Shown here piece by piece: positions 1 through 53,261 of a stretch of DNA of 64,000 nt. A program made the translations under genes and the position numbers. The DNA is from Folioceros fuciformis (lineage: Eukaryota), in contig JBNGIO010006317.1 in assembly GCA_049999805.1 (NCBI GenBank), positions 779,144-843,143 on the forward strand, in the 5' to 3' direction. The notes under the pieces are model-generated. The model did not search any database, was not told where the DNA came from, and saw only the letters and a list, made by a program, of their open reading frames with translations. Position 1 is the stretch's first letter. Each line of letters begins with the position of its first letter.

Positions 1-594
1 CCCGAGCTGAAGAAAAGTGCCGAGCTGACTCCAAGAGGACTTGGAAACATGGCAATGCGCCAAGTTTCAAGCATTCGTGTGAGAAAGTGTTCTCTACTTC
101 GTTCCCTCTCAGATTCCACAGCTGCCAAGCTCGGGATGAACTGCTCAGGGGTGCACCTCACCTCATTTACATCTCAGATTGTTGGACAGAAAATCGATGA
201 CTTCGGAGGTTTTCATAAGTTGATACCAACCCACGACGACATGACCTACCCCCTCTTTCAAGCTTGTTGTTCAAGACAGCTCCGGCCCGCCAATTCAAGC
301 CCCATTCGAAGATGAGCCGTGGCATCCCGTGCAATCCACAGGCCGACACATTCACGACGCGTTCGGAACAAGTGGATTCGGACTAGTGGCTGCTGGCTAC
401 ACTCTCTTGAGGAGCTGCACGTGATCACAGATTGGGAGGCTAAGCCAGCCTATTTCACCAGGGACGCCCCACTAGGCAATGGGGCCCATGTCTAATGGTT
501 TCGTGGAAGGTTGGCAAAATGATCACAGAGCGGACTGAGTCAAGCAAGCACACTGACACTACACACTTGGGCACTGGGTATGGCCTCGGTATTA

Positions 595-3282
595 TCACGG
601 TCGACCCTTGCAACTGCAAAAACCAGCTGCGAATCGATGCACACGGTACCCATCCCTTACAACGATGTCTCTCTGTTCAAGTCTGGACAAGATCTCTGTG
701 GAGCTGTGGCAGTCGCTGCACATGCGTAGATTCTTCGTTACGACCAGAGGTGTTCCACTCTGAGTGTTCAAGAGACCAAACGCCAGAGCTAGCTTCTCAG
801 CATGCCCACAGAGCATATCATCTGTTTCCTTCTCACACAGTGGCTTCAGCACCAACTTCCTGTGAGGTACGTGGCCTCCTTCCTGCTTCAGACGTGCATT
901 CGTGCTCTCTACCTTGAGGGCAATATCCTCCCTCCCTTCTCCTACCAGAAATCGATGTACCTCCTTATTTACCTCAATGGTTGCCACGGCGGGTTCCTTG
1001 TTAGCTCCTGCTACCCTTCTCTGCGTTTCAATCCTGTCTACATCCGTCCACCTACCTGCATCTGCGTAGGCATTGGCCATGAGCACGTATGCAGATGCCT
1101 CCAGGGGCTCCAGCCTAACAATGCTTTCAAAACACCGCATCGCCCTCTCGACATCCCCATGACTTTTGCAGGCGTTCAACAAGGACCTCAAGCCCACAAC
1201 ATCACGCTGGCCCTCACACGACAAAAGCATCTGCTCGGCCTCGTCCAAATAGCCGGCACGCCCAAGAAGATCGACCATGCAATTGTGATGCTCAACTGTA
1301 GGTTCGAGGCCATGCTGTCCAGCCATGGAATCAAAGAGCTTGCGACCCTCGTGGACCAAACCCTCATGACTGCAGGCTACTAGAAGGCAAGTAAAAGTAG
1401 CACCATCAGGCTGAATACCGGCAACTAACATCTCCTCAAAACACGCTAGTGCTCTGTGACCATCGTCGCAAGTACCATACCCGGATATCAGCGCCGTCCA
1501 TACAACCACGTCCTTCATCGCCATGCCGTCAAACACCTGGCGTGCATGTTCCAGATCGCCACACTTTGCATACATGTCCACCAGGCAGGTGGCCACCATT
1601 AAGTCACCCAGCAGTCCTCTTTCAACAATCTGTTTGTGCAGCTGCTTTCCCTTCTGTAAGGCACCAGTGCTTCTACAGGCCTTCAGGAGACTAGCAAAAG
1701 TAACACGGTCGGCCAGAATGAGGCCGTCCTGCTCCATCTGGCCATACAGACGAAGTGCCTCATGTCCAAGCCCTTGCTGGGCATATTCAGCAATCAAGGC
1801 ATTCCACATAACCACGTCTTTGGTGTTCATGCTGTCAAAAAGACGGCGTGCCTCTTCCAGTTCACCACATTTTGCATACCCAGCAATCACAGAATTCCAT
1901 GTAACCACATCCTTCGAGTTCATACTGTCAAAAACCTGACGTGCATCTTTCAGTTCACCACATTTGGCATACATGTCCACCAGGCAGTTGCCCACCACTA
2001 TGTCGTCCAGCAGCTCCCTTTCCACAATCTGCGAGTGAAGCTGCCTGCCCTTCTGTAACGCACCAGTGCTTCCACAGGCCTTCAAAAGGCAGGCAAAAGT
2101 AAAATGGTCAGCCGAAATGAGGCCCGACTGCTCCATCTGTCCATACAGCGCCAGCGCCTCACGTCCCAGCCCTTGCTGGGCATACCCAGCAATCAAGGCA
2201 TTCCATGTGACCACATCCTTTCTGCTCATGCTGTTAAATACCTGGCGTGCATCTTTCAGTTCGCCACATTTCGCATACATGTCCACCAGGCAATTGTTAA
2301 CAAACAAGTTAGCAGGAATACCACTGCGCAACACGTCACAGTGCACTTTCCTGCCAGATTCCAAGTCGGCAGCAAATGCACAAGCTTGAAGGGCAGCCAC
2401 AAAGACCTGACCATTCGCCTTCAGCCCTGACCTACGCATCTTAAGGTAGAGTTGTACGGCCTCTTTAGGTTTCCCATGCTTGGCATGTGCGTTGATTATA
2501 GAAGACCACATGAAGGCATCTGGTTTGCCCACCCTGGTGAACACATCCGTGGCCTCCTGCAGCCTTCCCCCACTGGCATACATCCGCAGTACATGGTTTC
2601 CCAGATAAGTATTCGACTCGTACCCAAGTTTGACAATAAGATCATGAACTCGTCGCCCCACAGCCACATCCCTCTTAAAGGCACACAGTTTCAGCACGGT
2701 ATACAACAAAGACAGAGAAACAGAAGAGCCTGTCCGTGCCAAAACCTCCAGGGCTCCAGCGGCCTCAGCAAGCTTCCCCTGCTCACAAAAAGTGGTCACA
2801 GAAACAGCTGTCACGAGCCCGATTCCCGATCCTCCCCGCACGCCAGGGCCAGGCTTATTCAGACAGATGCCCTCGGCCGGAGAGGCGCCATGACTCATCT
2901 GCACAACGACCTGCTCATCACCCCAAGCTGGCTCGAAATCGTTCAACCACATCGCCTTGCCTGACCCCTCACGCCGTATGTCCGGCGCAGGGCAGCTGTT
3001 CTCATCTTGTCTGTCGTCCCACCACATGGTAGGGCCCGGAGAAAAGTGTTGCCACAATTGCTCCTGCTCCTGGCGAGGACCATGGCTGGATACCCCGTCC
3101 CTACACACAAAATCACTCGCAAGTGGAAATGCTTCCCTCCTCGCACTGCCACTACTGCTCCTGAACGCCTGCTTGCCTGCCGGAGCTCGAATCCCTGATG
3201 ATGCCAAATGACCGGGATCTCCTCGTAGAATCCCTGTACACACAAAAATTCGTCGGGTCCACGAAAATCCCCGCCGCCGCAT
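595..3282 (-). CDS. PLS-class PPR protein with E1-E2 and DYW:KP (GRP-ending) deaminase domain; degenerate N-terminal PDF-like motif
   Basis: Intronless ORF; first ATG at 3282 (the ORF track starts at GTG 3312). P/L/S repeats (VVTWNALIAGY, TFACLLKAC, LVDMYAKCG), then KEPAVATIEV...CGHAEKLALAFGL...KNLRMCSDCH...CSCKGRP. Confidence 0.93.
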   Translation of the reverse strand: MRRRGFSWTRRIFVCTGILRGDPGHLASSGIRAPAGKQAFRSSSGSARREAFPLASDFVCRDGVSSHGPRQEQEQLWQHFSPGPTMWWDDRQDENSCPAPDIRREGSGKAMWLNDFEPAWGDEQVVVQMSHGASPAEGICLNKPGPGVRGGSGIGLVTAVSVTTFCEQGKLAEAAGALEVLARTGSSVSLSLLYTVLKLCAFKRDVAVGRRVHDLIVKLGYESNTYLGNHVLRMYASGGRLQEATDVFTRVGKPDAFMWSSIINAHAKHGKPKEAVQLYLKMRRSGLKANGQVFVAALQACAFAADLESGRKVHCDVLRSGIPANLFVNNCLVDMYAKCGELKDARQVFNSMSRKDVVTWNALIAGYAQQGLGREALALYGQMEQSGLISADHFTFACLLKACGSTGALQKGRQLHSQIVERELLDDIVVGNCLVDMYAKCGELKDARQVFDSMNSKDVVTWNSVIAGYAKCGELEEARRLFDSMNTKDVVMWNALIAEYAQQGLGHEALRLYGQMEQDGLILADRVTFASLLKACRSTGALQKGKQLHKQIVERGLLGDLMVATCLVDMYAKCGDLEHARQVFDGMAMKDVVVWTALISGYGTCDDGHRALACFEEMLVAGIQPDGATFTCLLVACSHEGLVHEGRKLFDSMAGQHGLEPTVEHHNCMVDLLGRAGYLDEAEQMLLSCEGQRDVVGLRSLLNACKSHGDVERAMRCFESIVRLEPLEASAYVLMANAYADAGRWTDVDRIETQRRVAGANKEPAVATIEVNKEVHRFLVGEGREDIALKVESTNARLKQEGGHVPHRKLVLKPLCEKETDDMLCGHAEKLALAFGLLNTQSGTPLVVTKNLRMCSDCHSSTEILSRLEQRDIVVRDGYRVHRFAAGFCSCKGRP

Positions 3283-6750: not shown

Positions 6751-7104
6751 ATTGCATAACCTCAACTACTAACCGTATTCATTAGGATGAACACCCGCTT
6801 GAGCAGACAGCTCAAGAACTGTATTATCGATAAAAGGCATTACAAGACTAAGAATTGAGGGGCGGGCAGAAGAGGGACTTTTGAGAGTGAACCTAGGCCA
6901 CGTTCCATGAGCTGTGTGAAGACCAGGCGGCGGTAACCCAGAAATAACTGTCCGCTATGTCTATTAGCAGTACAAACCACTGAACTGTCGTACCCCCACC
7001 TCAACAACTATTACGGATTGCCAAGACCAATGCTAAGCATCTCCATAACCAAAAAAAGTCTTATCACCGGGGCGGTCAGACGTGAGAAACCTGATACTAC
7101 ACAT

Positions 7105-8560
7105 CTAGAAGCACTTCCTGTGGACAATCGGAGGGCCCGACTCATCGTACTCGCTCTTCGCAATCCACATCTGCACAAAGGCAATGCATATGCCAGGAGG
7201 GTCAAATACCCGTTTTGACCACGTTGCGCAACACAGAAGGACACGACACTACAGAGAATAATACATACCTGCTGGAAGGTGCTCAGAGATGCCAATATGG
7301 ATCCTCCGATCCATACACTGTACTTCCTTTCCGGAGGAGCCACCACCTTGATCTTCATGCTGCTCGGGGCCAGAGCCGTGATCTCTTTGCTCATTCGGTC
7401 AGCAATACCCGGGAACATAGTTGTTCCTCCACTGAGCACGATGTTGCCATACAGATCCTTACGGATATCCACATCACACTTCATGATGGAGTTATAAGTG
7501 GTCTCGTGGATACCAGCAGCCTCCATACCGATGAGCGATGGCTGGAACAAGACCTCAGGGCACCTGAACCGTTCCGAGCCGATAGTAATCACCTGTCCAT
7601 CAGGAAGCTCGAAGCTTTTCTCCAGCGTGGAGCTGGCACGCGCGGTATCCAGTTCCTGCTCGAAGTCAATGGCAACATAGGCCAGCTTCTCCTTCATGTC
7701 CCGGACAATTTCCCGCTCTGCTGTGGTGGTAAAGGAGTAGCCGCGCTCAGTGAGAATCTTCATGAGACAATCAGTCAGATCCCGCCCGGCAAGATCCAGA
7801 CGCAGGATGGCATGGGGAAGGGCGTAACCCTCATAGATGGGCACTGTGTGAGTTACTCCATCACCAGAATCAAGCACAATACCTGGATGGCCAGCCAGTA
7901 CAAACGTCAGCGACCAGGGCACCCAAACCAGGTCTATCACTTAACAGACGCAGGCAGGCCTTAAACTGAACACTCACCGGTAGTACGTCCACTGGCATAC
8001 AACGACAGCACTGCCTGGATTGCCACGTACATGGCCGGGGCATTGAAGGTCTCAAACATAATCTGAGTCATCTTCTCCCGGTTAGCTTTGGGGTTCAGGG
8101 GAGCCTCAGTAAGCAACACCGGGTGCTCCTCGGGGGCAACCCGCAGCTCGTTGTAGAAAGTATGATGCCAGATCTTCTCCATGTCATCCCAGTTGGTAAC
8201 GATACCATGCTCGATCGGGTACTTCAGGGTCAGGATACCACGCTTAGACTGTGCCTCATCACCAACGTAAGCATCCTTCTGACCCATGCCGACCATCACA
8301 CCTGTGTGCCGCGGACGTCCCACGATGCTCGGGAACACAGCTCGAGGAGCATCATCTCCTGCAAAACCAGCCTGCACAACCCGCCAAACCAATTCATCGG
8401 AACCAGACCCTAGAACCGACTTCCATCCACATAAGCGGAACAACCACACCGTCCACATCCAGATAAGGCGGCTCCTAACCTTGACCATTCCGGAACCATT
8501 GTCACAGACGAGTGGCTGGATGTCCTCGGGATCGCCACCGCTAGCCAATCTTTCGGCCAT
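7105..8560 (-). CDS. ACT: Actin
   Basis: Exons 8560-8480, 8371-7978 (394 nt), 7882-7269 (614 nt), 7170-7105 (66 nt), matching canonical plant actin intron positions. Motifs [26 protein letters not shown] and a C-terminal HRKCF. Confidence 0.98.
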
Positions 8561-12526: not shown

Positions 12527-15500
12527 ATGCTATCTCCCGGACCAACCAGCAGTTTTCACAGCCATGTCGCCGAGGATACATTCCTGGTCACCAGACCATG
12601 GATTTTCTTGAGAAGAGCGGTTGCCAGTAGCAGCAGCGTTGAGCAACAAGCCCAAGACGTTGTAGTTGCAGACCCCGCACAGGACGTACAGAGGTTGTGG
12701 CAGAAATACTTCTCGAATCCTACGGAATGGTGGGACAACAGACTCGGGAAGGTACGACTGGCTCTTTCTGATAAGATTTTTCATCCGAATTATTTCGTGC
12801 CAGAAGGGTTGAGTTATGATCTGGGCACAGAGTGGTCCCCGAAGTCCAGATTTTGCGCATAAGAAGACGAAGGAGGCTCTGTGGATGGACAGCAGATACA
12901 AGCCTCCGTGGGTTGAATCTCAGCTAGCTAATGTCGACACACTTAGAACCATGGGAAATCCCCGTGTCTGGTATGTCAGGAGGACTGATGTAACGTTAGT
13001 GGATGGAAATGTTTGAACATGTTTACCCGTTGCCAACCCAGCCGTGTGCTGTGCTGTCCAGGGCAAACAGTGAATCTCAAAATCGTCGTGGTTTGGGTAA
13101 ATCTTGCAAGGAAGAACAGCTGGAAATGGCACTGGATGTCATGGATCAGCCGAGCATGGTGCCTGCAGTGGGCACTTATTTCCATCTGTTGAAGGCATGT
13201 ATCAAGAAGAAGTCCCTTGCCGAGGCCAAGCGAGTGTACGACGACATGGTCAAGCACGGATACGAGTCCCACAGCTTTTTGGGTGAATCTGTTGTGAATA
13301 CGCTGGTGAAGTGTGGGAGCCTCGAAGATGCTCTCCAAGTTTTTCACAGGTTGTCAAAACGGACTGCTTTCTCTTGGACAGCTGTCATTTCAGGCTATGT
13401 TAGCCATGGACGACCTCATGAGGCTCTGGATATGTTTCAGAAAATGCAGGAGGAGGGTGTGCGGCCGGACTCATTCACTTTCGTCAGCGTACTGAAGGCC
13501 TGTAGCAGTGTGGGAGATTTGGAACAAGGGAAGAAGGTGCATGCCGAAGTAATAAAATACAACTGCGATGCAGATTTGCATGTGGTCAACACTCTTGTCC
13601 ACATGTATGCACAGTGCGGGAGCATGGTAGATGCTCGGCATCTGTTCGATACGTTGCCTGAAAAGAACGTGGTGTCATGGAATGCCATGCTTGCAGGTTT
13701 CGCCAAGCAGGAACATGCAGACAAGGCTTTGCAACTTTTCTACCAAATGCAAAAGGAGGACGTTGTGCCAAATGCTCGTACGTTTGTAAGTGTTATCAAG
13801 GCTTGTGCATGTATCGGAGAGAGGGAGGAGAGCACTATTGTACAAGGTGAGGCGCTCAAGCTGGGGGCACTTAAAGAGGGGAAGTTCATACATCAACAAG
13901 CAGTCGCTAAGGGTTACGGATCGGACCTCTTTGTTGGGAACACTCTGGCCCACATGTACGCAACCTGTGGGAGCTTACTGGATGCACAGCATGTGTTTGA
14001 CACCTTGCCCCAAAAGGATGTGGTGTCATGGAACTCGATACTTGCAGGATATGCTGAACAGAAACGAGTAGAACAGGCCTGGCAACTTTATACGCGGATG
14101 GAGGACGAAGGTGTTCAGCCAAATGATCGAACCTTTGTGGGTGTTCTTCACGCATCTGCCACATTTGCTGACATGGAGGACAGCGTATGTGTGGATGGGC
14201 GGTTCATCAAAATGACCAGCCTTTGGAGGGGGAAAGCAGTGCACAATAAAGCTATTAGTACGGGTTATGTATCTGACCAATTTGTCGGAAACGTCCTGGT
14301 GCACATGTATGCAAGATGTGGGAGCCTAGTGGATGCACAGCTTGTATTTGACACTCTTCCTCGGCGTGATGTTGTGTCATGGAACGCGATGATCTCAGGA
14401 TATGTGCAGCAACAGCAAGGAGATAGGGCCTTAGACCTTTATGCCCAAATGTGCAAAAGTGGAACCAGACCAGACGTTTGGACTTTTACTTGTGTGCTGA
14501 AAGCATGTGCTAGCCTGGCAGAAACAGAAGAACGTACGGCTGTAGACGGTCAATCTGTGAAGAGAGTGTTGTTGCAGAAGGGCAAGGATATCTATGCTGA
14601 GGCTGTCCGACGGGGTTATGGGTCAAACCTGTTTATCGGAAACACTCTTGTCCATGTATATGCGAAGTGTGGAGCCATGCTGGATGCTTGGCAGGTATTT
14701 GTCACCTTGCCAGAGCGAAATGTGATCTCATGGAATGCAATGATTGCAGGATATTCTCAGCAGCAACAAGGTGAAAAAGCCCTGCAACTCTATACCCAAA
14801 TGCTTGAAGAAGGAGTGAGTCCAGACGTCTGGACATTTTCCACCGTGCTCACAGCATGTGCTAGCCTCGCGGATGTTGAAGAGAGCACTTTCTATAATGG
14901 ACAGCCCATCAAAGCAAAGTCGCTGCAAGAGGGGAGGGCAATCCATGCAGAAGTAATGCGCAAGGGCTATGCATCAGACGTATTTGTTGGCAGCACACTC
15001 GTTGTCATGTATGCAAAATGTGGGAGTGTGATTGATGCACAACACGTGTTCGAAACATTACCGAACCGGGATGTGGTAACCTGGAATGCAATCCTCGGTT
15101 GCTATGTAGAGCAGGAACAAGGGGAAAAGGCGTTGCAGTTGTACACGATCATGCAGAAGGAAGGTGTCCAACCAGATGCAGCCTCATTTTTGTGGATCCT
15201 GAAGGCATGCAGCCACACAGGTGCCCTGGATGTTTGCACGCAGATTCATAAGCATATCAAGGGAAGTAAACACAGTGGGAGCGTTACTGTGTCAACTGCT
15301 CTCGTTCACGCATACGGCAAATGTGGAAGCATGGTGGATGCGCAGCAAGTGTTTGATGCCTTGCCCGAACGAGATGTGGTAGCATGGACAGCTCTAATGG
15401 CTGGATATGCCCGACAAGGAGACTCTAAGAAGTGCATAGAGTGTTTCGAGAAGATGACCCGATCAGGCGTAAAACCAACTGGCGTCACATTCCTTTCCCT

Positions 15501-16035
15501 TCTGTCTGCATGCAGCCATGCCGGAATGGTGGAAGAAGGCCAGCAGTACTTTGTCTCTATGGAGACGGACTATGGCATCACGGCTACAAGTGACCATTAT
15601 TCTAGCATGATTGACCTCTTCGGCAGGGCCGGACTCTTCAGCAAAGCAGAAGCGCTTCTCCTGGACATGCCGATTCAGCCCGACTCTGCCGTCTGGTCGA
15701 CACTGCTCGGGGTCTGCCGGAATCATGGAAATGTGAGTCTGGGAAGACATGCCTTTGACTGCCTGGTACGCTTGCAGCCACTAGAAGCTTCACCATACAT
15801 GCTCATGTCCCAGATCTATGCCAATGCTGGCCTATGGGATTCCGCAACAGCGATCGACGAACTGAGACATCGAGCGGGCGTCTGGAAAACCCCTGGTCAG
15901 AGCTGGATTGAGTATGACCAAGAAGTGGTCACTTTTATCGCAGGTGACCGCAGACATGAACAAACTGACAAGGTTTATGCGATGCTGGAACACGTTTCCT
16001 CGGGGCTCAAAGGAGCAGGGCTGAGCGTTTGCTGA
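12527..16035 (+). CDS. PLS-class PPR protein, E+ type (truncated DYW), with N-terminal OSB-type PDF motif and four LL-type repeats
   Basis: Exons 12527-12751, 12831-12970 and 13062-16035 join in frame through GT-AG introns. Ends KTPGQSWIEY...GDRRH...GLSVC* with no HxE or CxxC. The true start may lie further upstream. Confidence 0.88.
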
Positions 16036-16710: not shown

Positions 16711-19700
16711 TCAGGGTCGACCCTTACAGCTGCAAGAACCACCAGCAAATCGATGCACACGGTACCCATCCCTTACAACGATGTCTCTCCTTTCAATCCT
16801 TGACATGATTTCAGTGGAACTGTGGCAGTCACTGCACATGCGTAGATTCTTCGTTACAAACAGAGGTGTCCCACTAGGAGTGTTCAGCAGACCGTACGCA
16901 AGAGCTAGTTTTTCCGCATGCCCGCAGAGCACATCTTCCTTTTCCTTCTCAGTCAGTGGCTTCAGTACCAACTTTGTTTGAGGCTGGTGGCCACCTACCT
17001 GCTTCAGACGTGCATTCATGCTCTCTACCTCGACTCCAATATCATCTCTGTTATCTCCCACCACAAATGTATGAACCTGCTTCTTCACCTCAATGCCTGC
17101 TACTGCAGGTTTTTTATTCGCTCCTGCCACCATTCTCTGAGTTTCAATCCTCTCTACATCAGTACATCTGCCTGCATCCGCATAGACATTAGCCATGAGC
17201 ACATATGAGGACGCCCGCTGAGGGTCCAGTCTAACAAGAGTTTCAAAACACCGAGATGCCCTCTCTATATCCCCGTGACTTTTGCAGGCATTCAACAAAG
17301 ATGTCAACCCCACAACATCCCTTTGGCTCTCACAAGATAGCATGTTCTCCGCCTCATCCAAATGGCCTGCACGTCCAAGAAGATCTACCATGCACGTGTA
17401 ATGCTCAGTAGTGGGTTTGACGCCATGCTGTTCAAACATGTAACCGAAGTGCTTGCGACCTTCATCCACCAGTCCTCCGTGGCTGAAGGCTGTTAAAAGG
17501 CAAGTGAATGTAACAGAATCGGGCTGAATACCAGCAACTAGCATCTCCTCAAAACAAGCTAGTGCTTTGTGGCCTTCATCACAAGCACCACACCCAGCTA
17601 TCAGGGCATTCCATGTCACTACATCTTTTGTGGCCAAGCTGTCAAAAACCCCTTGTGCATATTCCAGTTCGCCACATTTTACATACATGTCCACCAAGCC
17701 GTTGCCCACCAGTAAGTCATCTAGCAGGCCTCTTTCCACAATCTGAGAGTGCAGCTGCCTGCCCTTCTGCAAGGCACCAGCGCTTGCACAGGCCTTCAGA
17801 AGGCAAGCAAAAGTAATATTGTCAGCCACAACCAGGCCTTCTTGCTCCATTTGTCCATACAAGACAAGCGCCTCTTGACCAAGCCCAATATTTGCATACC
17901 CAACAATCAGGGCCGTCCATGTCACCACATCCTTTGTTGCTAAGCTATCGAAAACCCCACGTGCATCTTCCAATTCGCCAAATTTTGCATACATGTCCAC
18001 CAAGGAGGTGCCCACCACGGCATCATCCAGCAGTCCTCTTTCCACAATCTGTGAATGCAGCTCCCTGCCCTTTTGCAAGGCACCAGCGCTTCGACAGCCC
18101 TTCAAGAGGCAAGCAAAAGTAAACTGGTCGGCAACAGTCAGGCCCTCGTGCTCCATGCGTTCGTAAAGAACAAGCGCCTCTTCACCGAATCCATGAGTCG
18201 CATACCCCGCAATCAAGGTATTCCATGTTACCACACTTTTTGTGGTCATTCTTTCAAAGACCCCGCACGCTTCTTCCAGTTCACCACATTTGACGTACAT
18301 GTCCACCAGGCAGTTGCCTACCAAAATGTCATCTAGCAAGCCCCTTTCCACGATCTGTGAGTGCAGGTCCCTGCCTTTCTGCAAAGCACCGGTACTTGCA
18401 CAGGCCTTAAGAAGGCAAGCGAAAGTAACATGGTCGGCCACAGTCAGTCCCTCCTGCTCCATTTGTCCATACAGAGCAAGCGCTTCTTGGCCAAACCCAT
18501 TATTTGCATATCCTGCAATCAAGACCGTCCATGTCACGACATTCTTTGTTGCCAAGCTTTCAAAAACACCACGAGCATCTTCCAGTTCACCACATTTTGC
18601 ATACATATCAACCAGGCACGTGCCCACCAGAATGTCATGTAGCTGCCCTCTCCTTACAATCTCTAAGTGCAACTGCCTGCCCTTCTGTAGGGCACCAGCG
18701 ATGCCACAGGCCTTCAGAAGACAAGCAAAAGTAACATGGTCAGCCAAAATCAGGCCCTTTTCCTCCATCTGTCCATACAGAGCAAGCGCTTCTTGGCCGA
18801 ACCCATGATTTGCATACCCAGCGATCAGGGCATTCCATGTCACCACATTTCTTGTGCCTAAGCCGTCAAAAATTCGCCGTGCCTCTGCCAGTTCGCCACA
18901 CTTTGCATACATATCCACCAAGCCAGTGCTGACAAACAAATCCGGATAAATGCCACTTCGCAACAAATCAGAGTGGACTTCTCTGCCAGATTGCAAATCC
19001 ACTGCTAAAGCACAAGCTTGAAGGGCAGCCACAAAGACGTGAGCATCCGCCCTCACACCTGAGCTGCGAACCGTAAGGTACAGTTGGACGGCCTCTTGAG
19101 CTTTCCCATGTTTAATATGTGCATTGACCATCGAAGACCACATGTAGGCATCTGGTTTGCCGACCCTGGCGAACACATCCATGGCCTCCTGTAGCCTCCC
19201 TCCACTTGCATACATGCGCAAGATATGGTTTCCTAGGTACGTATTTGACTCGTATCCAAGCTTGACACTAAGATCATGAACTCGTCGCCCCACCACAAGA
19301 TCCTTCTTAGCTGCACATAGCCTTAGTAGTGTGCACAATAAGGACAGAGAAATAGAACAGCCAGTGTGTGCCAGAAATTCCAGGGCTCCAGCGGCCTCAA
19401 TTAGCTTCCCCTGCTGACAAAGCGTGGTCACAGATGCAGCCGTTACCACGCCCATGGCCGATCCTGCACGCCTGCTAGGCACAAAGCTATCCGGAGGCCT
19501 CAAATTGGAAGGAAAGGCACCATGACCCATCTGCATATCCAAAGAAACCAGTTGCTCATCGACCCAGGCTGGCTTCCACATGCTGTTTAACCAGAGGACC
19601 TCGTTGGACCCCTTACGCCGGAAGTCGGGCAAATGGGAGCTCTTCTTCAGTCGCCTGTCATCCCACCACAAGGTTGGGTCCAGAAAAAAATGTCGCCACA

Positions 19701-19902
19701 AGAGCTCCTGCTCTTGCTGACGACCGTCGCCATCACCAGCTACACATTTGCTCGGAAGTGCTGGGATCCTTAGACTGCTGCACCTGGAGGCCCGATTGTT
19801 GGCCAGCGGTTGACACCCAAAAGTGATTTCAGCTGGAGCTCCTCGTAGACACGCTGTACATCCTTGGGTCCACAGTGAATCCGGTGGCCATACTGTAGCC
19901 AT
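16711..19902 (-). CDS. PLS-class PPR protein with N-terminal PDF motif, E1-E2 and DYW:KP (GRP-ending) deaminase domain
   Basis: Intronless 1063-aa ORF with a transit-peptide-like N-terminus and about 20 P/L/S repeats. C-terminus KKPAVAGIEV...LKPLTEKEKEDVLCGHAEKLALAYGL...CSDCH...CSCKGRP. Confidence 0.95.
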   Translation of the reverse strand: MATVWPPDSLWTQGCTACLRGAPAEITFGCQPLANNRASRCSSLRIPALPSKCVAGDGDGRQQEQELLWRHFFLDPTLWWDDRRLKKSSHLPDFRRKGSNEVLWLNSMWKPAWVDEQLVSLDMQMGHGAFPSNLRPPDSFVPSRRAGSAMGVVTAASVTTLCQQGKLIEAAGALEFLAHTGCSISLSLLCTLLRLCAAKKDLVVGRRVHDLSVKLGYESNTYLGNHILRMYASGGRLQEAMDVFARVGKPDAYMWSSMVNAHIKHGKAQEAVQLYLTVRSSGVRADAHVFVAALQACALAVDLQSGREVHSDLLRSGIYPDLFVSTGLVDMYAKCGELAEARRIFDGLGTRNVVTWNALIAGYANHGFGQEALALYGQMEEKGLILADHVTFACLLKACGIAGALQKGRQLHLEIVRRGQLHDILVGTCLVDMYAKCGELEDARGVFESLATKNVVTWTVLIAGYANNGFGQEALALYGQMEQEGLTVADHVTFACLLKACASTGALQKGRDLHSQIVERGLLDDILVGNCLVDMYVKCGELEEACGVFERMTTKSVVTWNTLIAGYATHGFGEEALVLYERMEHEGLTVADQFTFACLLKGCRSAGALQKGRELHSQIVERGLLDDAVVGTSLVDMYAKFGELEDARGVFDSLATKDVVTWTALIVGYANIGLGQEALVLYGQMEQEGLVVADNITFACLLKACASAGALQKGRQLHSQIVERGLLDDLLVGNGLVDMYVKCGELEYAQGVFDSLATKDVVTWNALIAGCGACDEGHKALACFEEMLVAGIQPDSVTFTCLLTAFSHGGLVDEGRKHFGYMFEQHGVKPTTEHYTCMVDLLGRAGHLDEAENMLSCESQRDVVGLTSLLNACKSHGDIERASRCFETLVRLDPQRASSYVLMANVYADAGRCTDVERIETQRMVAGANKKPAVAGIEVKKQVHTFVVGDNRDDIGVEVESMNARLKQVGGHQPQTKLVLKPLTEKEKEDVLCGHAEKLALAYGLLNTPSGTPLFVTKNLRMCSDCHSSTEIMSRIERRDIVVRDGYRVHRFAGGSCSCKGRP

Positions 19903-20866
19903 CAGTTTTGTGGGGGAAGAACTTCAGATCCACAGACGCGGGGGCGACTGGCACGCTTCAAAGTGATCGCAGGGTCTGCCAGTATTCTTTAATGGAGACG
20001 ACAGGGCCCCGAAGACGCAACCGCGATGCCTCGTCGTGATCACACTACTGGGTAGCGTCCAGTGTAGAATCAACCACGCCGAGTGTGGAGATACGGACCG
20101 ATTGCAACTTGCAGATGGTACCAAACCGCCGCTACAAAATTTTCCCCCTTCACCCCAAGTAAGCGTTCCCAGACCACACCTACGAAGTGGTACCAGCCCG
20201 CCCCTACAAAGTACTGTTGGCCCACCTCTTCGAAGTATTCACTATCCATCTGCGACGCACTTCACGGATGTTCCCAACTCCAACACCCTTCACGAATGTT
20301 TAAGCGGTGAGAAATGTCGGGGTAAGCTCAGCACCTCAGAAACGTGTGTTCACGAAACATTTATGTGCTTTGAAGGTGCTTTGAAGGACAGTGGGTGGGG
20401 GTGAAGGCCAGAATGTTCCTACCACGCCAGAGGTGCTCCTTTTAGTGCGTGCCTCAAGGAGGTTCATAGTGAGTGTGCAAGCAGCAAGCCCATGCAAAAT
20501 AAGGAGCACAAGGCAGACACTTCTTTCATTTGAGGAGCACCAACACGTATAGCTGCAGCAGTCCACGCAGCAGGATATGTGGCGTGGTTCTGTGTTTGAA
20601 TACTGGCAATACTCCATGCACTACTTTCGGGGCTTTCACAAAACTTGACTCTGTGATTTGGTCTCCTGAAAACCTCACAAGAAGCTATTGTCAGTTGAAA
20701 AGGGTGGAAGGTTTTGCAAAGCTCCTCTCCTCTCACGATGAGTAGAAAGTGAGCAGGGAGGATCAGATTTTGCAAAAAAAAGAGCCGGTCACCCACGACA
20801 TACCTGCTTCAAACACGGTACTGAAATCGAGAGGGTCCGAGAGTCACTGCATCCCTCAAAAGTCTT

Positions 20867-42743: not shown

Positions 42744-44039
42744 ATGGAGAAGGCAATCACAGGGAGGGTGGAGGCGAGGAAGAAGCCGATTGTGGCCATC
42801 CAGCCGAAGGTGGACGCGTCTCGGCAAATGCGAGCCGTGGAGTGGCACGGCAAGAAGAGCGTGAAGGTGAACTCGAATCGGCCTCGGCCGCTGGTGACGG
42901 ATCCGAGGGATGTCATCCTCAAGGTGACGAGTACGGCCATCTGCGGCTCCGACCTGCATCTGTACGCGGGAGCCATGCCGGGGATGGAAGCCGGGGATGT
43001 GATGGGGCACGAGTTCATGGGAATCGTGGAGGAGGTCGGTGCGGGGGTCCGAAACTTCAAGCAGGGAGACCGGGTGGTGGCCTGCTTCGACATCGCCTGC
43101 GGGGAGTGTTTCTTCTGCGAGCACCAGCTCTTCTCCTGCTGCGACAACACAAATGACAGCCAGGACGAGGCGGCGCTCTACGGGGATCGCACCGCGGGCT
43201 TTTTCGGGTACTCGCACATGACGGGAGGGTGGCAGGGAGGGCAGGCGGAGTTCGTGCGCGTGCCGATCGCGGACGTGAACCTCCTCAAGGTCCCGGACGG
43301 ACTCACCGACGAGAAGGCCATCTTTCTGTCGGACATCCTTCCCACGGCGTGGCACGCGAACGAGATGGGGGAGGTCGGAGAGGGCGACAGCGTTGCCATC
43401 TGGGGGTGCGGACCTGTGGGGATTCTTGCGGCGCACTGTGCGAAGGTGAGGGGAGCCAGGGTTGTGTTCGTCATCGACGAGGTGGAATACCGGCTGGCTC
43501 ACGCCAAGAAGAAGTTGCCGTTTGTGAGGACAGTGAATTTTCAGAAGCAGAAAGTGTACGACGAGGTGCGGCGGGAGTGTCCCCGGGGAGTGGACGTCGG
43601 GATCGAGGCTGTCGGTATGCACTACATGCACACGGTGAAGCATAAGGCGGAGGTGGCGACCGGGCTGGAGACGGACCCTTCCGAGACGCTGAACGAGATC
43701 ATCTCTACCGTGCGGAAGGGCGGGCGGGTGTCTGTGATCGGGGCTTATGCCGGCTTCACCAATCACTTCAACATCGGTGCCTTCATGGAGAAGAGCGAGA
43801 CCGCGCGCGGGGGACAGACCCCGGTGCAGAAGTACTGGCACAAGCTTCTCGGCATGGTGGAGAAGGGGGAGCTGGACCCTAGTATGGTCATCAGCCACCA
43901 GCCAGACCTGGACCAGGCGCCGGAGATGTACAAGATCTTTAACGACAAAGCGGATGGCTGCATCAAGGTCGTGATGCACCCGCACGGCCTGACTTCGGGT
44001 GACTCCAGGTCCTTGCCTGAGTGGGGAATCGTGAAATAG
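42744..44039 (+). CDS. Zn-dependent medium-chain dehydrogenase of the YbdR/AdhB (formaldehyde dehydrogenase-like) type, intronless
   Basis: TAICGSDLH, GHEFMG, CGECFFC..C, GYSHMTGG..GGQAEFVRVP, LSDILPT, WGCGPVG; strongly GC3-rich. Confidence 0.9.
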   Translation: MEKAITGRVEARKKPIVAIQPKVDASRQMRAVEWHGKKSVKVNSNRPRPLVTDPRDVILKVTSTAICGSDLHLYAGAMPGMEAGDVMGHEFMGIVEEVGAGVRNFKQGDRVVACFDIACGECFFCEHQLFSCCDNTNDSQDEAALYGDRTAGFFGYSHMTGGWQGGQAEFVRVPIADVNLLKVPDGLTDEKAIFLSDILPTAWHANEMGEVGEGDSVAIWGCGPVGILAAHCAKVRGARVVFVIDEVEYRLAHAKKKLPFVRTVNFQKQKVYDEVRRECPRGVDVGIEAVGMHYMHTVKHKAEVATGLETDPSETLNEIISTVRKGGRVSVIGAYAGFTNHFNIGAFMEKSETARGGQTPVQKYWHKLLGMVEKGELDPSMVISHQPDLDQAPEMYKIFNDKADGCIKVVMHPHGLTSGDSRSLPEWGIVK

Positions 44040-48011: not shown

Positions 48012-50457
48012 TAGTCAAACCCTCTCTAAATGGGAACCCCCTTTAAATGGGATGCCCAGGCTTACTCCCTTGAATGTGCTACATGCTAAATGGGAAACCC
48101 TCTAATTTGTAAATCGGAACATGTCTCCCAAACATTCAATGCAAGTACACCTCTATAAAAGGGAAAATACATATTTAAAAAAATAAAAAAAATTGAGGAA
48201 ATCATCTTATCAAGATTAAATCATGAGTTATTGAGATTATGTCAAGTTAAAGGCTATCGAGATTATATCATGAAACATAGATAGTCATCGAGATTGGGCC
48301 TATATATGTAGTAGTTTTGTACACTATGCTTTCTGATCAGAAGCATTGTTCCTAGTACATAAGTTGTTTCATTATACAAGTTGTCTTATGGTGTTGTAAG
48401 TTGTTGTCTTGCTGTGAGATATTTTGTTTGTGTTCCTTACCCATTCTCTTTGACTTCTAGAAATAATGCCGCCCAAGCTGCTATGCAAGCATGCTACCCT
48501 AACAAAGCAACAAAAGAAAGAGGTTTGCGAATATTATGTCCAACACTCTTGCATACTTAAGGAGTTGACTAGATGGACAATAGAGAAGTTTTCAATAGCA
48601 GCTTTTAAAAGTGCATTGTCTATGATTGTGAATGACAAAGACAAATGGTTGGACCCTACCATTGGTCCAACAACTAATATGGCAGGAATGAGGGATAGAC
48701 CAGTCGTATGCCCACAGGTTGACTACGCAGTACACATTTGGGCTCTTGCAATCCAAGCTCAAGGTGCCACAATTTCAGATGACTTGCTTCGTGAGATGGC
48801 TTCTAAATTCCACGAGAGGATTCCTGTAGATGAGAGACTAAAAATGACATACCATAGAGGTTGGGTTGCTCGCTGGAAGAAAAGGTATAATTTTAAAGCA
48901 GTTGTCAGACATGGAGAGGTAGGGAGTGTTGACAATATAGAAGCAGTGAAGGCAGCTATTAGAGAGTTGCAACTTCAAGTTCTTGATTATGGAGCTGCAA
49001 ATGTTTTTAATATGGATGAGACTGATATTTTCTTCAGAGCACTGCCGAACAGGACACTTGCAACAATGCCTGTTGCAGGACGGAAGCAGTTTGAGGACCG
49101 GTTGACAATTGGATTGACAACAAATGTTGATGGATCTTGCAAGTTGCTACCTTTTGTGATTAACAGATTACTTAGGCCTCGTGCTTTTTTCCTTTATGAA
49201 TGTTCAAAATCCCGAGAATTTGAATATTATGTGGTCTGCAAACCAAAAGGCATGATGACAATAGAGCTGTTTGAGAAGTTTTTTACTAGATTTTGACCAA
49301 AGGATGGTTGCATTAGGGCGGACTAGAGTGTTACTTATAGTGGATAATTGTCCTGGGCATCGATTTGGTGATGAAGCTCAATTGCAAGTTACAAAGGTGG
49401 TTTTCTTTCCACCCAATGTGACAAGCGTATATCAGCCTTTGGACTAGGGGATCATCCGTTCTTTCAAGGCTCAGTATCGCAAGTTGATGATTTCGTACCA
49501 ATGCAAGCAGATCATAGACAATGTGGCTACAACTATCGATGTATATCAAGCATTGGTTATGCTAGTAAAAGGTTGGACTTCATTTGTGAGTCCTTATACC
49601 ACACACAATTGTTGGGAGGCATAGCACTTTAGATGCGAAATTGCGTGCACAAGATGCTCGGTTCCGTGAATCTTTGGATCTAAAAAGCGTACCATATGAT
49701 CCAGAGGATCCATTGTCGGATCCTCAAAATCACTCTAATTCGTTGGAAACACAGGTAGAAGAGCTACAATAGTCCGTGCGAAGCTTAGCATTATTAACAT
49801 CTGAGGATATAACAGGAATTGCTGATGTTGGATATCCAATGATGACAATTGAAGAGTATCTGAACTTTGAGGAGGATGAAGGATTGGAGACTACATATAT
49901 TCCTACAGAGAACGAAATATGGCAAGCGTTAATCCCTCCGCCTGTTAATGAGGAGGGTGGGGAGAATGATATAGCGTCAATGGAGACCATAGCGCCAACA
50001 CCGCGTACGACAAAGGATGCTGTAGATAATGCTATGAGGATAGCGAAGATGTTTTTGGAAGAGATGCTACATAATACTCTTGATGCTTTAAAGTTGTTTT
50101 CTCAGTTGGAAAACATATTGCTAGTAATTGGATGAAAGCAATTCAACATCAATCCTTTGATTGATGATTATTTTAACCCGGCAAACTAGAATTAGGTTGG
50201 CAGCTATGTAGTATGAGAAAGCATTTTGGATTTTTTGGAAGATTTTCAGCTCATTCGAATTTTTGATTTAAAGGGTTTTTTTTAAATTTATTATTTTCCA
50301 AAAAGAAGATGAAAATGCCTAAGCGAGAACCCCTCTTTTCTACTTTAGATGCTCTTAATGCTCTTAAATTCTCTTAATTTCATCTTCTCTTCTTTTCTCT
50401 TTTTTAGAAATGTAATTTTTCTACTCCCAATTGTTCCCAATTAGAGGAATCTGACTG
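48012..50457 (+). mobile_element. pogo/Tigger-like (Tc1/mariner) DNA transposon with disrupted CENP-B HTH + DDE transposase
   Basis: TA|TAGTCAAACCCTCTCTAAATGGGAAC at the left end and GTTCCCAATTAGAGGAATCTGACTG|TA at the right. ORF at 48466 has GWVARWKKRY, RHGE, VFNMDET, followed by stop-interrupted LLIVDNC and PPNVTSVYQPLD. Confidence 0.9.
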
Positions 50458-52496: not shown

Positions 52497-53261
52497 TCAG
52501 AAAAGTATGTCTCCAAGCAAGAGACCACCAAGGATGCCGGTGGCAATGGCCCAGAAATTGTCCCTGTTGTGCGGCATCCTCTGTGGTTGCACAGGTACTG
52601 GATACTGGTAAGCTCCAGGAGCAGCAGCATAGTAGGGCTTCGCCTCGCCAAAAGGTCCGGGAGGGAAGGCGTAGACAGGAGCCTGACCCGAAGCCGAAGC
52701 GCCATAAGGAGCAGGGTATGGTCCCGTCGGATACCCCACGACGGGAATACCGTCAGCTGGCGCATCACCTTCTTTAGCTTGTGGCACAGATGTTGACGGA
52801 CTGGGATCATCCGGCCTGGGAAACTTGACTCCCTGAAGCCTGACCGAAAACCTGATGACGCCTTTCATCCTCCCGGAAGGCCGCTGCAGACCAAGCTCGA
52901 TGATGTTGTCGTTCTGATTCCAGCTGGACGCCTGACTCATCCTCAGAACTTCGAAAAGAGGGAAATAGGCAGTGCCGACGATGGAGTCGGAGAGGAGATC
53001 CTTGCTGCGCACCTGCAGGACAAGATACGCGTAGGGATCGTAGAGCACGGAGTCGTGCACAGGCAGCGAGATGCGGTCGTTCCACACAGGATTCGTCCCC
53101 GCCTTCTTCAGCACCCGAGTGCATCGGTTTGACGTCGCATCAACCCGAGCCACAACGTAGGTGCTCATCTTGCGCAAGAAGCTCACATCTTTCAGATCCT
53201 CCGCAGCCATGACAGACAACTCGATTGTAGCCGGCTGCAAGCCTCTGCTCGGAGCCGCCAT
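52497..53261 (-). CDS. SRC2-like C2-domain protein with Pro/Tyr-rich region and hydrophobic C-terminus
   Basis: IELSVMAAEDLKDV..MSTYVV..GTNPVWND..VGTAYFPL..RPSGRMKGVI; tail GILGGLLLGDILF. Confidence 0.88.
   Translation of the reverse strand: MAAPSRGLQPATIELSVMAAEDLKDVSFLRKMSTYVVARVDATSNRCTRVLKKAGTNPVWNDRISLPVHDSVLYDPYAYLVLQVRSKDLLSDSIVGTAYFPLFEVLRMSQASSWNQNDNIIELGLQRPSGRMKGVIRFSVRLQGVKFPRPDDPSPSTSVPQAKEGDAPADGIPVVGYPTGPYPAPYGASASGQAPVYAFPPGPFGEAKPYYAAAPGAYQYPVPVQPQRMPHNRDNFWAIATGILGGLLLGDILF

Follow-up and report, generated by a model that had tools for sequence, protein, structure and literature searches.

The 64,000-nucleotide stretch of Folioceros fuciformis DNA analysed here (the window) contains three PPR genes, g1, g2 and g3, all of which encode a PDF motif (Table 1). 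The g1 open reading frame and the motif at 19549-19701 are present as the original prediction described them; the 51 residues of that motif correspond to residues 68-118 of the protein and lie inside the PDF domain. The PDF- and PPR-coding parts of g1 form one uninterrupted frame, and positions 19515-20134 were reproduced without differences by DNA contigs from three public runs, which are possibly the assembly's own data.

Table 1. Coordinates of the PPR genes of the window and of their parts.
Feature	Position	Strand	Description and basis
g1	16711..19902	-	Single-exon intact CDS, 1063 aa plus stop; PDF-PLS-E-DYW:KP protein (P0001)
g1 residues 1-64, presumed organelle presequence	19711..19902	-	AlphaFold pLDDT <50 for residues 1-48 and 50-56; dN/dS
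g1 residues 65-122, PDF domain	19537..19710	-	HMM bits, pLDDT, dN/dS
g1 residues 123-150, flexible linker	19453..19536	-	pLDDT <50 at residues 128-147
g1 residues 151-870, PLS-type PPR array	17293..19452	-	Pfam PPR, PPR_1, PPR_2, PPR_3
g1 residues 871-930, E1/E2 region	17113..17292	-	Pfam E_motif 876-938, E 6.6e-13
g1 residues 931-1063, DYW:KP domain, GRP type	16714..17112	-	Pfam DYW_deaminase 971-1061, E 1.7e-33
g2	595..3282	-	g1 paralogue (P0350, 895 aa), PDF-PLS-E-DYW:KP (GRP); 70% amino-acid identity to g1
g2 residues 72-125, degenerate PDF	2908..3069	-	42.5 bits all-PDF HMM, 37.5 bits OSB-only HMM
g3 inferred exon 1	12527..12751	+	Start codon, presequence and first PDF part (PDF from 12689); HMM, predicted
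g3 inferred intron	12752-12830	+	79 nt, GT..AG
g3 inferred exon 2	12831..12970	+	Second PDF part (to 12938); HMM, predicted
g3 inferred intron	12971-13061	+	91 nt, GTATGT..CAG
g3 exon 3	13062..16035	+	PLS PPR array, E motif and PG box, without DYW deaminase; ORF 13003-16035, Pfam

Pfam recognized 17 PPR stretches in the g1 protein, the array being classed as PLS as a whole, and these are followed by an E1/E2 region, the arrangement typical of PLS-class editing factors. The C-terminal deaminase domain is, as predicted, of the DYW:KP class: its 133 residues begin with K1-P2 rather than a PG box, contain HAE rather than HSE at position 65, Lys88 and CSDCH at position 93, and end in GRP, the features of the GRP subgroup, whose domains are 132-133 residues long (PMC9478123, PMC11845758). 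Residues 1-56 are disordered in the AlphaFold model and fast-evolving, which is compatible with a putative organelle presequence. Judged by its sequence, g1 is best explained as a nuclear gene whose product is a presumed organelle-directed RNA-editing factor, a PPR protein of the PLS class and of the DYW:KP (GRP) subtype with presumed editing activity.

The segment preceding the PPR array had been proposed to be a homologue of the PDF motif of the OSB proteins. When residues 60-125 of g1 were compared with 1.84 billion proteins by phmmer, 453 matches passed a threshold of E≤1e-3 and 81 passed E≤1e-10, and E-values of 1e-11 to 1e-50 were reached. The best 150 of the 453 matches comprise 61 proteins that combine an SSB domain with PDF, 18 that combine PDF with PPR, 36 short fragments and 35 other proteins of at least 250 residues. 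The SSB domain scored above the Pfam cut-off in five of ten matches tested, a match from Populus nigra (P0037) is named ‘protein OSB1, mitochondrial-like', and identity to fern proteins reached 50-60%. An HMM of the kind suggested by the original prediction, built exclusively from the 144 PDF copies of the 61 SSB-domain (OSB-type) proteins, scored 55.2 bits for g1, 76.4 for g3 and 37.5 for g2, and matched none of 2460 shuffled controls; an HMM of all PDFs gave 68-69 bits for g1. The g1 motif keeps the Pro-Asp-Phe signature and all positions that are at least 80% conserved except two, a Ser-to-Thr change after the conserved Pro and a His-to-Arg change after PDF. Many of the conserved residues are Trp, Phe, Arg or Lys, and PPR-linked and OSB-linked motifs have these positions in common, their consensus being nearly the same. 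These profile data identify residues 65-122 of g1 as a true PDF motif, homologous to those of OSB proteins. A word-based search with residues 55-130 gave no match, and strict regular expressions located one PDF site in the window, compared with three for the HMM. Pfam returned nothing for residues 1-140 at E≤10, indicating that it contains no PDF model.

AlphaFold predicts that the PDF of g1 is a compact helix-strand-helix domain, with a pLDDT of 93 for the isolated segment and 90-96 in the full-length protein. In this context the PDF and the PPRs are confidently modelled, the helical hairpins of the array starting at residue 155 (pLDDT 93-98), while residues 1-56 and 128-147 are disordered. 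The domain matched no known fold, which is no proof of a new one: the best E-value against PDB sequences was 0.69, Foldseek found no PDB match at E≤0.001, the highest Z from VIA-align wide was 3.8, and the best ESM Atlas score, 0.83 to phage gp49-like clusters, is at chance level. As no solved structure was matched, the fold provides no hint of function.

The two paralogues differ in the state of their PDF motif. The dN/dS for g1 vs g2 is 0.27 overall, with values of 0.38 for the PDF, 0.81 for the presequence and 1.73 for the linker. In g2 three residues of the motif have been replaced, namely F in the P-D-F signature, the conserved K, and V in WV, and the net charge is −8; the loss of these conserved residues shows that the module can decay. 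With a net charge of −1 and a pI of 6.1, the PDF of g1 is not basic. For PPR-linked PDFs the median net charge is only +2 and the median pI 9.2, compared with 6.9 for OSB-linked copies, and 35 of 43 PPR-linked PDFs fall in one set with 96% support. In g3, joining the two predicted first exons regained a full PDF of 82 bits, and the predicted three-exon model encodes 1112 residues free of stops.

PPR editors are usually drawn as a targeting peptide, a PPR array, an E region and a DYW domain, and the original prediction likewise held that a targeting peptide is normally all that precedes the repeats of PLS-DYW proteins and implied that the fusion in g1 was singular. Contrary to this view, 101 fetched proteins combine PDF with PPR, each with one to four PDF copies (two to four in many genes), all 68 matches in one search were PPR proteins of Diphasiastrum complanatum with a PDF, and the motif occurs in all three PPR genes of the window; thus the targeting-peptide-only rule fails for non-seed plants. 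Among the best 120 full-length PPR relatives, 23 matched the OSB-only HMM and 24 the all-PDF HMM. The named sources are one liverwort (Calypogeia), two mosses (Ceratodon and Sphagnum), two lycophytes (Diphasiastrum and Selaginella) and three ferns (Adiantum, Ceratopteris and Pteridium); hornwort-like proteins have the combination as well. No seed-plant PDF-PPR protein was found among the named matches, a small sample that includes nine gymnosperm proteins and the best 150 of the 453 phmmer matches. The PDF is always N-terminal to the PPR array, with a median linker of 23.5 residues (interquartile range 15-32, n=98), and a local SSB HMM matched no PPR-containing protein. The supposed tie to the KP (U-to-C) class did not hold either. 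The 101 proteins end in E-type, DYW:PG or DYW:KP C-termini, classes assigned by crude patterns that miscounted at least three DYW-ending proteins as lacking DYW, and a PDF is present in only four of the 14 HAE-type (KP-like) proteins that were fetched, those of the window included. Of the ten HAE-type proteins without PDF, six have N-terminal regions of at least 48 residues. The PDF-PPR fusion is neither a one-off nor specific to the KP class, and the PDF-first layout is an old module, widespread among the PLS PPR proteins of non-seed land plants. The motif was also seen repeated in tandem, with as many as 11-13 copies, and in otherwise unrelated settings, a kinesin among them. The range of the motif thus now extends beyond OSB proteins.

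With OSB proteins g1 shares the ∼55-residue PDF motif (positions LW, F, P, W-D-R, K, PDF-K, LW and P-W). In OSB proteins, however, an SSB-like OB fold is followed by one to three C-terminal PDFs, whereas in g1 Pfam found no SSB domain and the PDF lies N-terminal to PPR-E-DYW; g1 does not, therefore, belong to the OSB family. The GRP-type DYW:KP proteins of hornworts and the designer proteins KP2 and KP3 (PMC9478123, PMC11845758) resemble g1 in their 133-residue domain, KP box, HAE, Lys88, CxDCH and terminal GRP. The designer proteins differ in having a synthetic PLS array, a thioredoxin tag and no PDF (PMC9478123), and a native N-terminal domain of DYW:KP proteins is not mentioned in the available text of either source. 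Moss DYW:PG factors such as PPR56 (PMC10482289) share the PLS-E-DYW layout, and proteins from the mosses Sphagnum and Ceratodon also have an N-terminal PDF, but these DYW:PG factors, unlike g1, belong to the C-to-U class (PG box, HSE and DYW end). The trans-acting helpers MORF/RIP, ORRM and OZ, and the reported PPR fusions (PMC13386178), share with g1 the idea that a further module, binding nucleic acid or protein, is attached to the PPR editor or works alongside it; their folds are unrelated to PDF. The main text of this 2026 domain-fusion survey mentions neither PDF nor OSB, and our literature search, in agreement with the original prediction, found no description of a PDF-PPR fusion.

The PDF of mature g1 is predicted to bind single-stranded nucleic acid without sequence specificity, a reading to which we assign a probability of roughly 0.55. 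Since a PPR array lies on its RNA with the N-terminal end facing 5′, a flexibly tethered PDF would sit directly 5′ of the PPR footprint. Its role there is a more tentative matter; most likely it adds unspecific affinity or keeps the upstream RNA single-stranded. The PDF would be an accessory, outside catalysis; the original prediction had raised a built-in helper as one option. According to reviews, the PDF motif of AtOSB1, the only one for which ssDNA binding is on record, suffices for this activity, and OSB1 and OSB2 favour ssDNA over dsDNA or RNA (PMC6963530, PMC4166229). DYW:KP is the class shown to perform U-to-C editing, and designer DYW:KP proteins without a PDF do so in bacteria and human cells (PMC9478123). 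PPR56 edits in Escherichia coli when no more than 14 residues precede its first PPR (PMC10482289). The PDF is thus not required for editing. The near-neutral charge of the g1 PDF and the modest median charge of PPR-linked PDFs speak against a nucleic-acid binder, as do the decayed PDF of g2 and the lack of the motif in ten of the 14 HAE-type proteins.

It is also possible, although less likely than a role on the upstream RNA, that the PDF has kept the ssDNA preference of OSB proteins and anchors the editor at nucleoids, transcription bubbles or R-loops, leading to co-transcriptional editing, as the original prediction proposed. The OSB preference for ssDNA over RNA suits such a DNA tether better than it suits RNA binding. 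The ssDNA-binding sufficiency of the OSB1 motif, the near identity of the PPR-linked and OSB-linked consensus motifs and the suitably flexible linker after the g1 PDF are all consistent with tethering. PPR-linked PDFs, however, largely form their own group and are more basic, and their specificity may therefore have shifted; in addition, heterologous cells support editing by proteins that contain no PDF (PMC9478123, PMC10482289). Rather unlikely is a function of the PDF in protein-protein contact, through self-association or docking to OSB, editosome or nucleoid proteins, in place of nucleic acid. AtOSB2 is described as a tetramer (PMC6963530), and both the tandem repetition of the motif (up to 11-13 copies) and its presence in unrelated contexts are features that adaptor modules often show. 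Against this, no PDF-mediated protein contact was found in the available text of the reviews (PMC6963530, PMC4166229), and the Trp/Phe/Arg/Lys-rich conserved positions are those expected for the binding of single-stranded nucleic acids.

Improbable, by comparison, is the view that the g1 PDF is a remnant, inherited from an ancestral PDF-PPR gene and now dispensable, which adds little in this lineage. While the degenerate PDF of g2, the many KP-type relatives devoid of the motif and the PDF-independent editing in heterologous systems (PMC9478123, PMC10482289) would fit such a remnant, g1 has kept its highly conserved positions apart from the two substitutions described above, the dN/dS of its PDF contrasts with near-neutral flanks, and the motif has been kept in liverwort, moss, lycophyte, fern and hornwort-like proteins, with two to four copies in many genes. 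A chance resemblance or a mis-joined gene model is very improbable and, on sequence evidence, is ruled out by the E-values (1e-11 to 1e-50), the 0/2460 shuffles, the single ORF and the same order of parts in 101 proteins.

Binding of single-stranded nucleic acid by the PDF, were it true of the family, would give many bryophyte, lycophyte and fern factors a folded nucleic-acid-binding domain, an overlooked part of the early land-plant editosome with possible effects on affinity, on target range or on how editing is coupled to transcription. Native editors are commonly expressed in N-terminally trimmed form, as is routine for PPR56 (PMC10482289), and designer editors are built without the N-terminus; the PDF is a ready candidate for better designer C-to-U and U-to-C editors. 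A broader and speculative scenario, less likely than the tether to nucleoid DNA taken by itself, is that the PDF was ancestrally a built-in accessory of the RNA-editing factors of land plants, a single-stranded nucleic-acid clamp that may have been fused early to PLS PPR proteins, multiplied in lycophytes and lost in seed plants, where trans-acting MORF and ORRM proteins took over, or else one that physically couples editing to nucleoid ssDNA. The PDF-PPR fusion raises a directly testable question, namely how editing worked before MORF proteins.

The reverse-strand ORF g1 encodes an editing-factor-type PPR protein in which the segment ahead of the repeats (residues 68-118, window positions 19549-19701) had been assigned by the original prediction to the PDF motif, the ∼50-aa module of the OSB organellar ssDNA-binding proteins. 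Database comparison bore out this assignment. A phmmer search of 1.84 billion representative proteins with residues 60-125 matched 453 proteins at E<=1e-3, of which 81 passed E<=1e-10 and 10 passed E<=1e-30; 'protein OSB1, mitochondrial-like' from Populus nigra was among the matches (E 3.5e-18). [quoted passage not shown] The Pfam SSB model scored above its cut-off in five of ten matches and below it in four, the remaining protein being a kinesin. An HMM derived solely from OSB-type proteins (144 PDF copies from 61 proteins) gave 55.2 bits against g1 and no reported match to any of 2,460 shuffled PPR proteins. The conserved positions common to the PPR-linked and OSB-linked consensus motifs are nearly all retained in g1. 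These sequence data support the view that the g1 segment is homologous to the PDF motif. Residues 1-140 of g1 have no Pfam match even at E<=10, indicating that Pfam lacks a model for the PDF segment. As g1, in contrast to OSB proteins, contains no OB fold, it is not itself an OSB protein.

Downstream of the PDF, Pfam detects 17 PPR stretches, followed by E and deaminase domains (see table). The 133-residue C-terminal domain starts with K-P and closes with GRP; between them lie HAE (position 65), Lys88 and CSDCH (position 93). These are described as features of the DYW:KP domain, whose proteins perform U-to-C editing, for which Lys88 is essential; GRP is one of two hornwort subgroups of the class (PMC9478123, PMC11845758). 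On this basis, a hornwort is the probable source of the window.

Coordinates of g1 and its predicted segments, and of other genes in the window
Feature	Position	Strand	Detail
g1 ORF	16711-19902	-	1063 residues encoded
g1 presequence	residues 1-56		pLDDT mostly <50
g1 PDF	residues about 59-124		pLDDT 90-96
g1 linker	residues 128-147		pLDDT <50
g1 PPR hairpins	from residue 155		pLDDT 93-98
g1 E motif	residues 876-938		Pfam, E 6.6e-13
g1 DYW_deaminase	residues 971-1061		Pfam, E 1.7e-33
g2	595-3282	-	895 aa
g3	12527-16035	+	
g3 inferred exons	12527-12751, 12831-12970, 13062-16035	+	GT..AG borders
Actin (partial) ORF	7011-7763	-	domain match
Zinc alcohol dehydrogenase ORF	42744-44039	+	domain match
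Tc5/DDE transposase ORF	48466-49296	+	domain match
C2-domain ORF	52497-53261	-	domain match

AlphaFold2, supplied with a 25-row alignment, modelled g1 residues 60-125 as two short strands with a helix on either side (mean pLDDT 93, pTM 0.76). In a model of residues 1-330 in context (30-row alignment), the confidence profile points to a PDF that folds on its own, is attached by a flexible tether and does not belong to the disordered presequence. Comparison with solved structures revealed no match to the PDF by sequence (E 0.69), Foldseek or VIA-align (best Z 3.8). The arrangement is constant: in all 98 proteins where a full-length PDF precedes the array, the motif is N-terminal of the repeats. 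The first copy begins at residue 70.5 (median), and a median of 23.5 aa (interquartile range 15-32) separates PDF and first PPR match. Constraint between g1 and its paralogue g2 is sharply region-dependent, with dN/dS values of 0.21 for the PPR array and 0.19 for E-DYW. The value of 0.38 for the PDF, compared with 0.81 for the presequence and 1.73 for the linker, indicates that purifying selection has acted on the motif, in contrast to the near-neutral segments on either side, despite the decay of the g2 copy.

The original prediction implied that the fusion is singular, a view that does not survive a six-frame search of the window, in which the PDF HMM detected three loci. The second, g2, is 70% identical to g1, and both have a GRP-type DYW:KP end. 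Its PDF (residues 72-125; 42.5 bits; net charge -8) has degenerated, with substitutions of the P-D-F Phe, the W-V Val and the conserved Lys. The PDF of the third, g3, is divided between two reading frames upstream of an ORF at 13003-16035 (+). A three-exon model, with putative introns of 79 and 91 nt, would yield a 1,112-aa protein without stops, and joining inferred exons 1 and 2 gives a PDF that scores 82 bits; the C-terminus comprises an E motif and PG box without a deaminase. The first inferred intron (12752-12830) lies inside the motif, directly after the conserved Lys, and the g3 PDF is nearest (64%) to an OSB-type copy, not to the main PPR-linked group. All three genes fall inside 20 kb. 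The tail-to-tail pair g3/g1 is separated by 675 bp, and the g1/g2 pair has a dS of ∼0.7.

The combination is also far commoner beyond the window than had been supposed. The PDF HMM (E<=1e-3) matched 24 of the 120 best full-length g1 relatives, four of them partially and at the extreme N-terminus; the OSB-only HMM matched 23. PDF and PPR were combined in 101 fetched proteins, a count that includes g1 and, for a few genes, more than one isoform, with one to four PDF copies each. Those with a named source come from the liverwort Calypogeia fissa, the mosses Ceratodon purpureus and Sphagnum compactum, the lycophytes Diphasiastrum and Selaginella, and the ferns Adiantum, Ceratopteris and Pteridium. 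None of the named proteins is from a seed plant and none of nine gymnosperm proteins examined has a PDF, small samples that do not imply absence. By rough C-terminal patterns, which wrongly filed at least three proteins ending in DYW as lacking a deaminase, 76 of the 101 have no recognisable deaminase, 18 are DYW:PG and 3 DYW:KP; the other 4 are unclear and include a protein with HAE that ends in DRH. Conversely, the PDF occurs in only 4 of 14 fetched HAE proteins (g1 counted); of the ten without it, four begin <=22 residues from the first PPR and may be truncated, and six have N-terminal regions of at least 48 aa. Thus, the fusion is neither unique nor tied to the KP class.

When the motif of one Diphasiastrum protein was searched against targets of 639-2036 aa, all 68 matches were PPR proteins of Diphasiastrum complanatum, with motif identities of 63-88%; this set is a large lineage-specific expansion. 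The species has at least 68 PDF-PPR protein clusters, many with two or three PDF copies. One protein, P0296, has a second PDF within the PPR region (residues 680-735), and is probably two adjacent PDF-PPR genes merged in the gene model.

In a quick maximum-likelihood tree built from 187 PDF copies, whose 59 columns leave many forks unresolved, 4 changes suffice to explain the PPR/OSB label, compared with a mean of 39 after shuffling. A set with 96% SH-aLRT support unites 35 of the 43 PPR-linked copies with 3 OSB-labelled copies; outside it are the g3 PDF, three fern copies, the three copies of P0005, and P0258. This topology fits one main old PDF-PPR fusion followed by expansion, with further captures possible.

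The original prediction knew of no description of the fusion, and none came to light here: no paper in the full-text literature was found to tie PDF or OSB to PPR editing factors, although an earlier mention may exist elsewhere. 'PDF motif' and 'pentatricopeptide' were found together in only one paper, which reviews mitochondrial DNA replication, and a kingdom-wide 2026 survey of the domains fused to editing factors names neither PDF nor OSB in its main text (PMC13386178). Two known modules occur here in what appears to be an undescribed combination. Public databases already contain the proteins, labelled 'hypothetical' or 'pentatricopeptide repeat-containing'.

The N-terminus of a PPR array lies at the 5' side of the bound RNA, which would place a tethered PDF just 5' of the footprint. 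The reading favoured here is that it binds single-stranded nucleic acid unspecifically at this place, and would thereby raise affinity or hold the upstream RNA open. The main rival, advanced in the original prediction, is that the PDF tethers the editor to nucleoid ssDNA; the AtOSB1 PDF is reported to be enough to bind ssDNA, and both OSB1 and OSB2 to prefer ssDNA over dsDNA or RNA (reviews PMC6963530, PMC4166229). The median pI is 9.2 for PPR-linked copies versus 6.9 for OSB-linked ones. An essential role of the PDF is argued against by the reported activity, without a PDF, of designer KP editors (PMC9478123) and N-terminally trimmed PPR56 (PMC10482289), by the decay of the g2 motif, by the absence of the motif from many KP-type relatives, and by the net charge of the g1 PDF, which at -1 is not basic.

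The PDF was also observed in other contexts. In the dinoflagellate Effrenium voratum, proteins have tandem arrays of 8-10 motifs and neither SSB nor PPR (P0007 and cluster members; also P0006, P0008 and P0012). P0004 (Kingdonia uniflora, 1,160 aa) is an OSB-like array of unusual length: it has 11-13 copies, and SSB matches weakly close to the C-terminus. In P0086 (Coptis chinensis, 1,526 aa) three motifs (191-389) precede a kinesin motor domain, which may reflect a genuine fusion or the merging of gene models. The window, which contains 110 N, has four other ORFs with domain matches (see table), all ordinary nuclear genes. At 16742-16743, a contig of run X1 and one of run X2 show C>T at both adjacent sites ∼30 bases from the contig ends, probably a paralogue or assembly-end effect.
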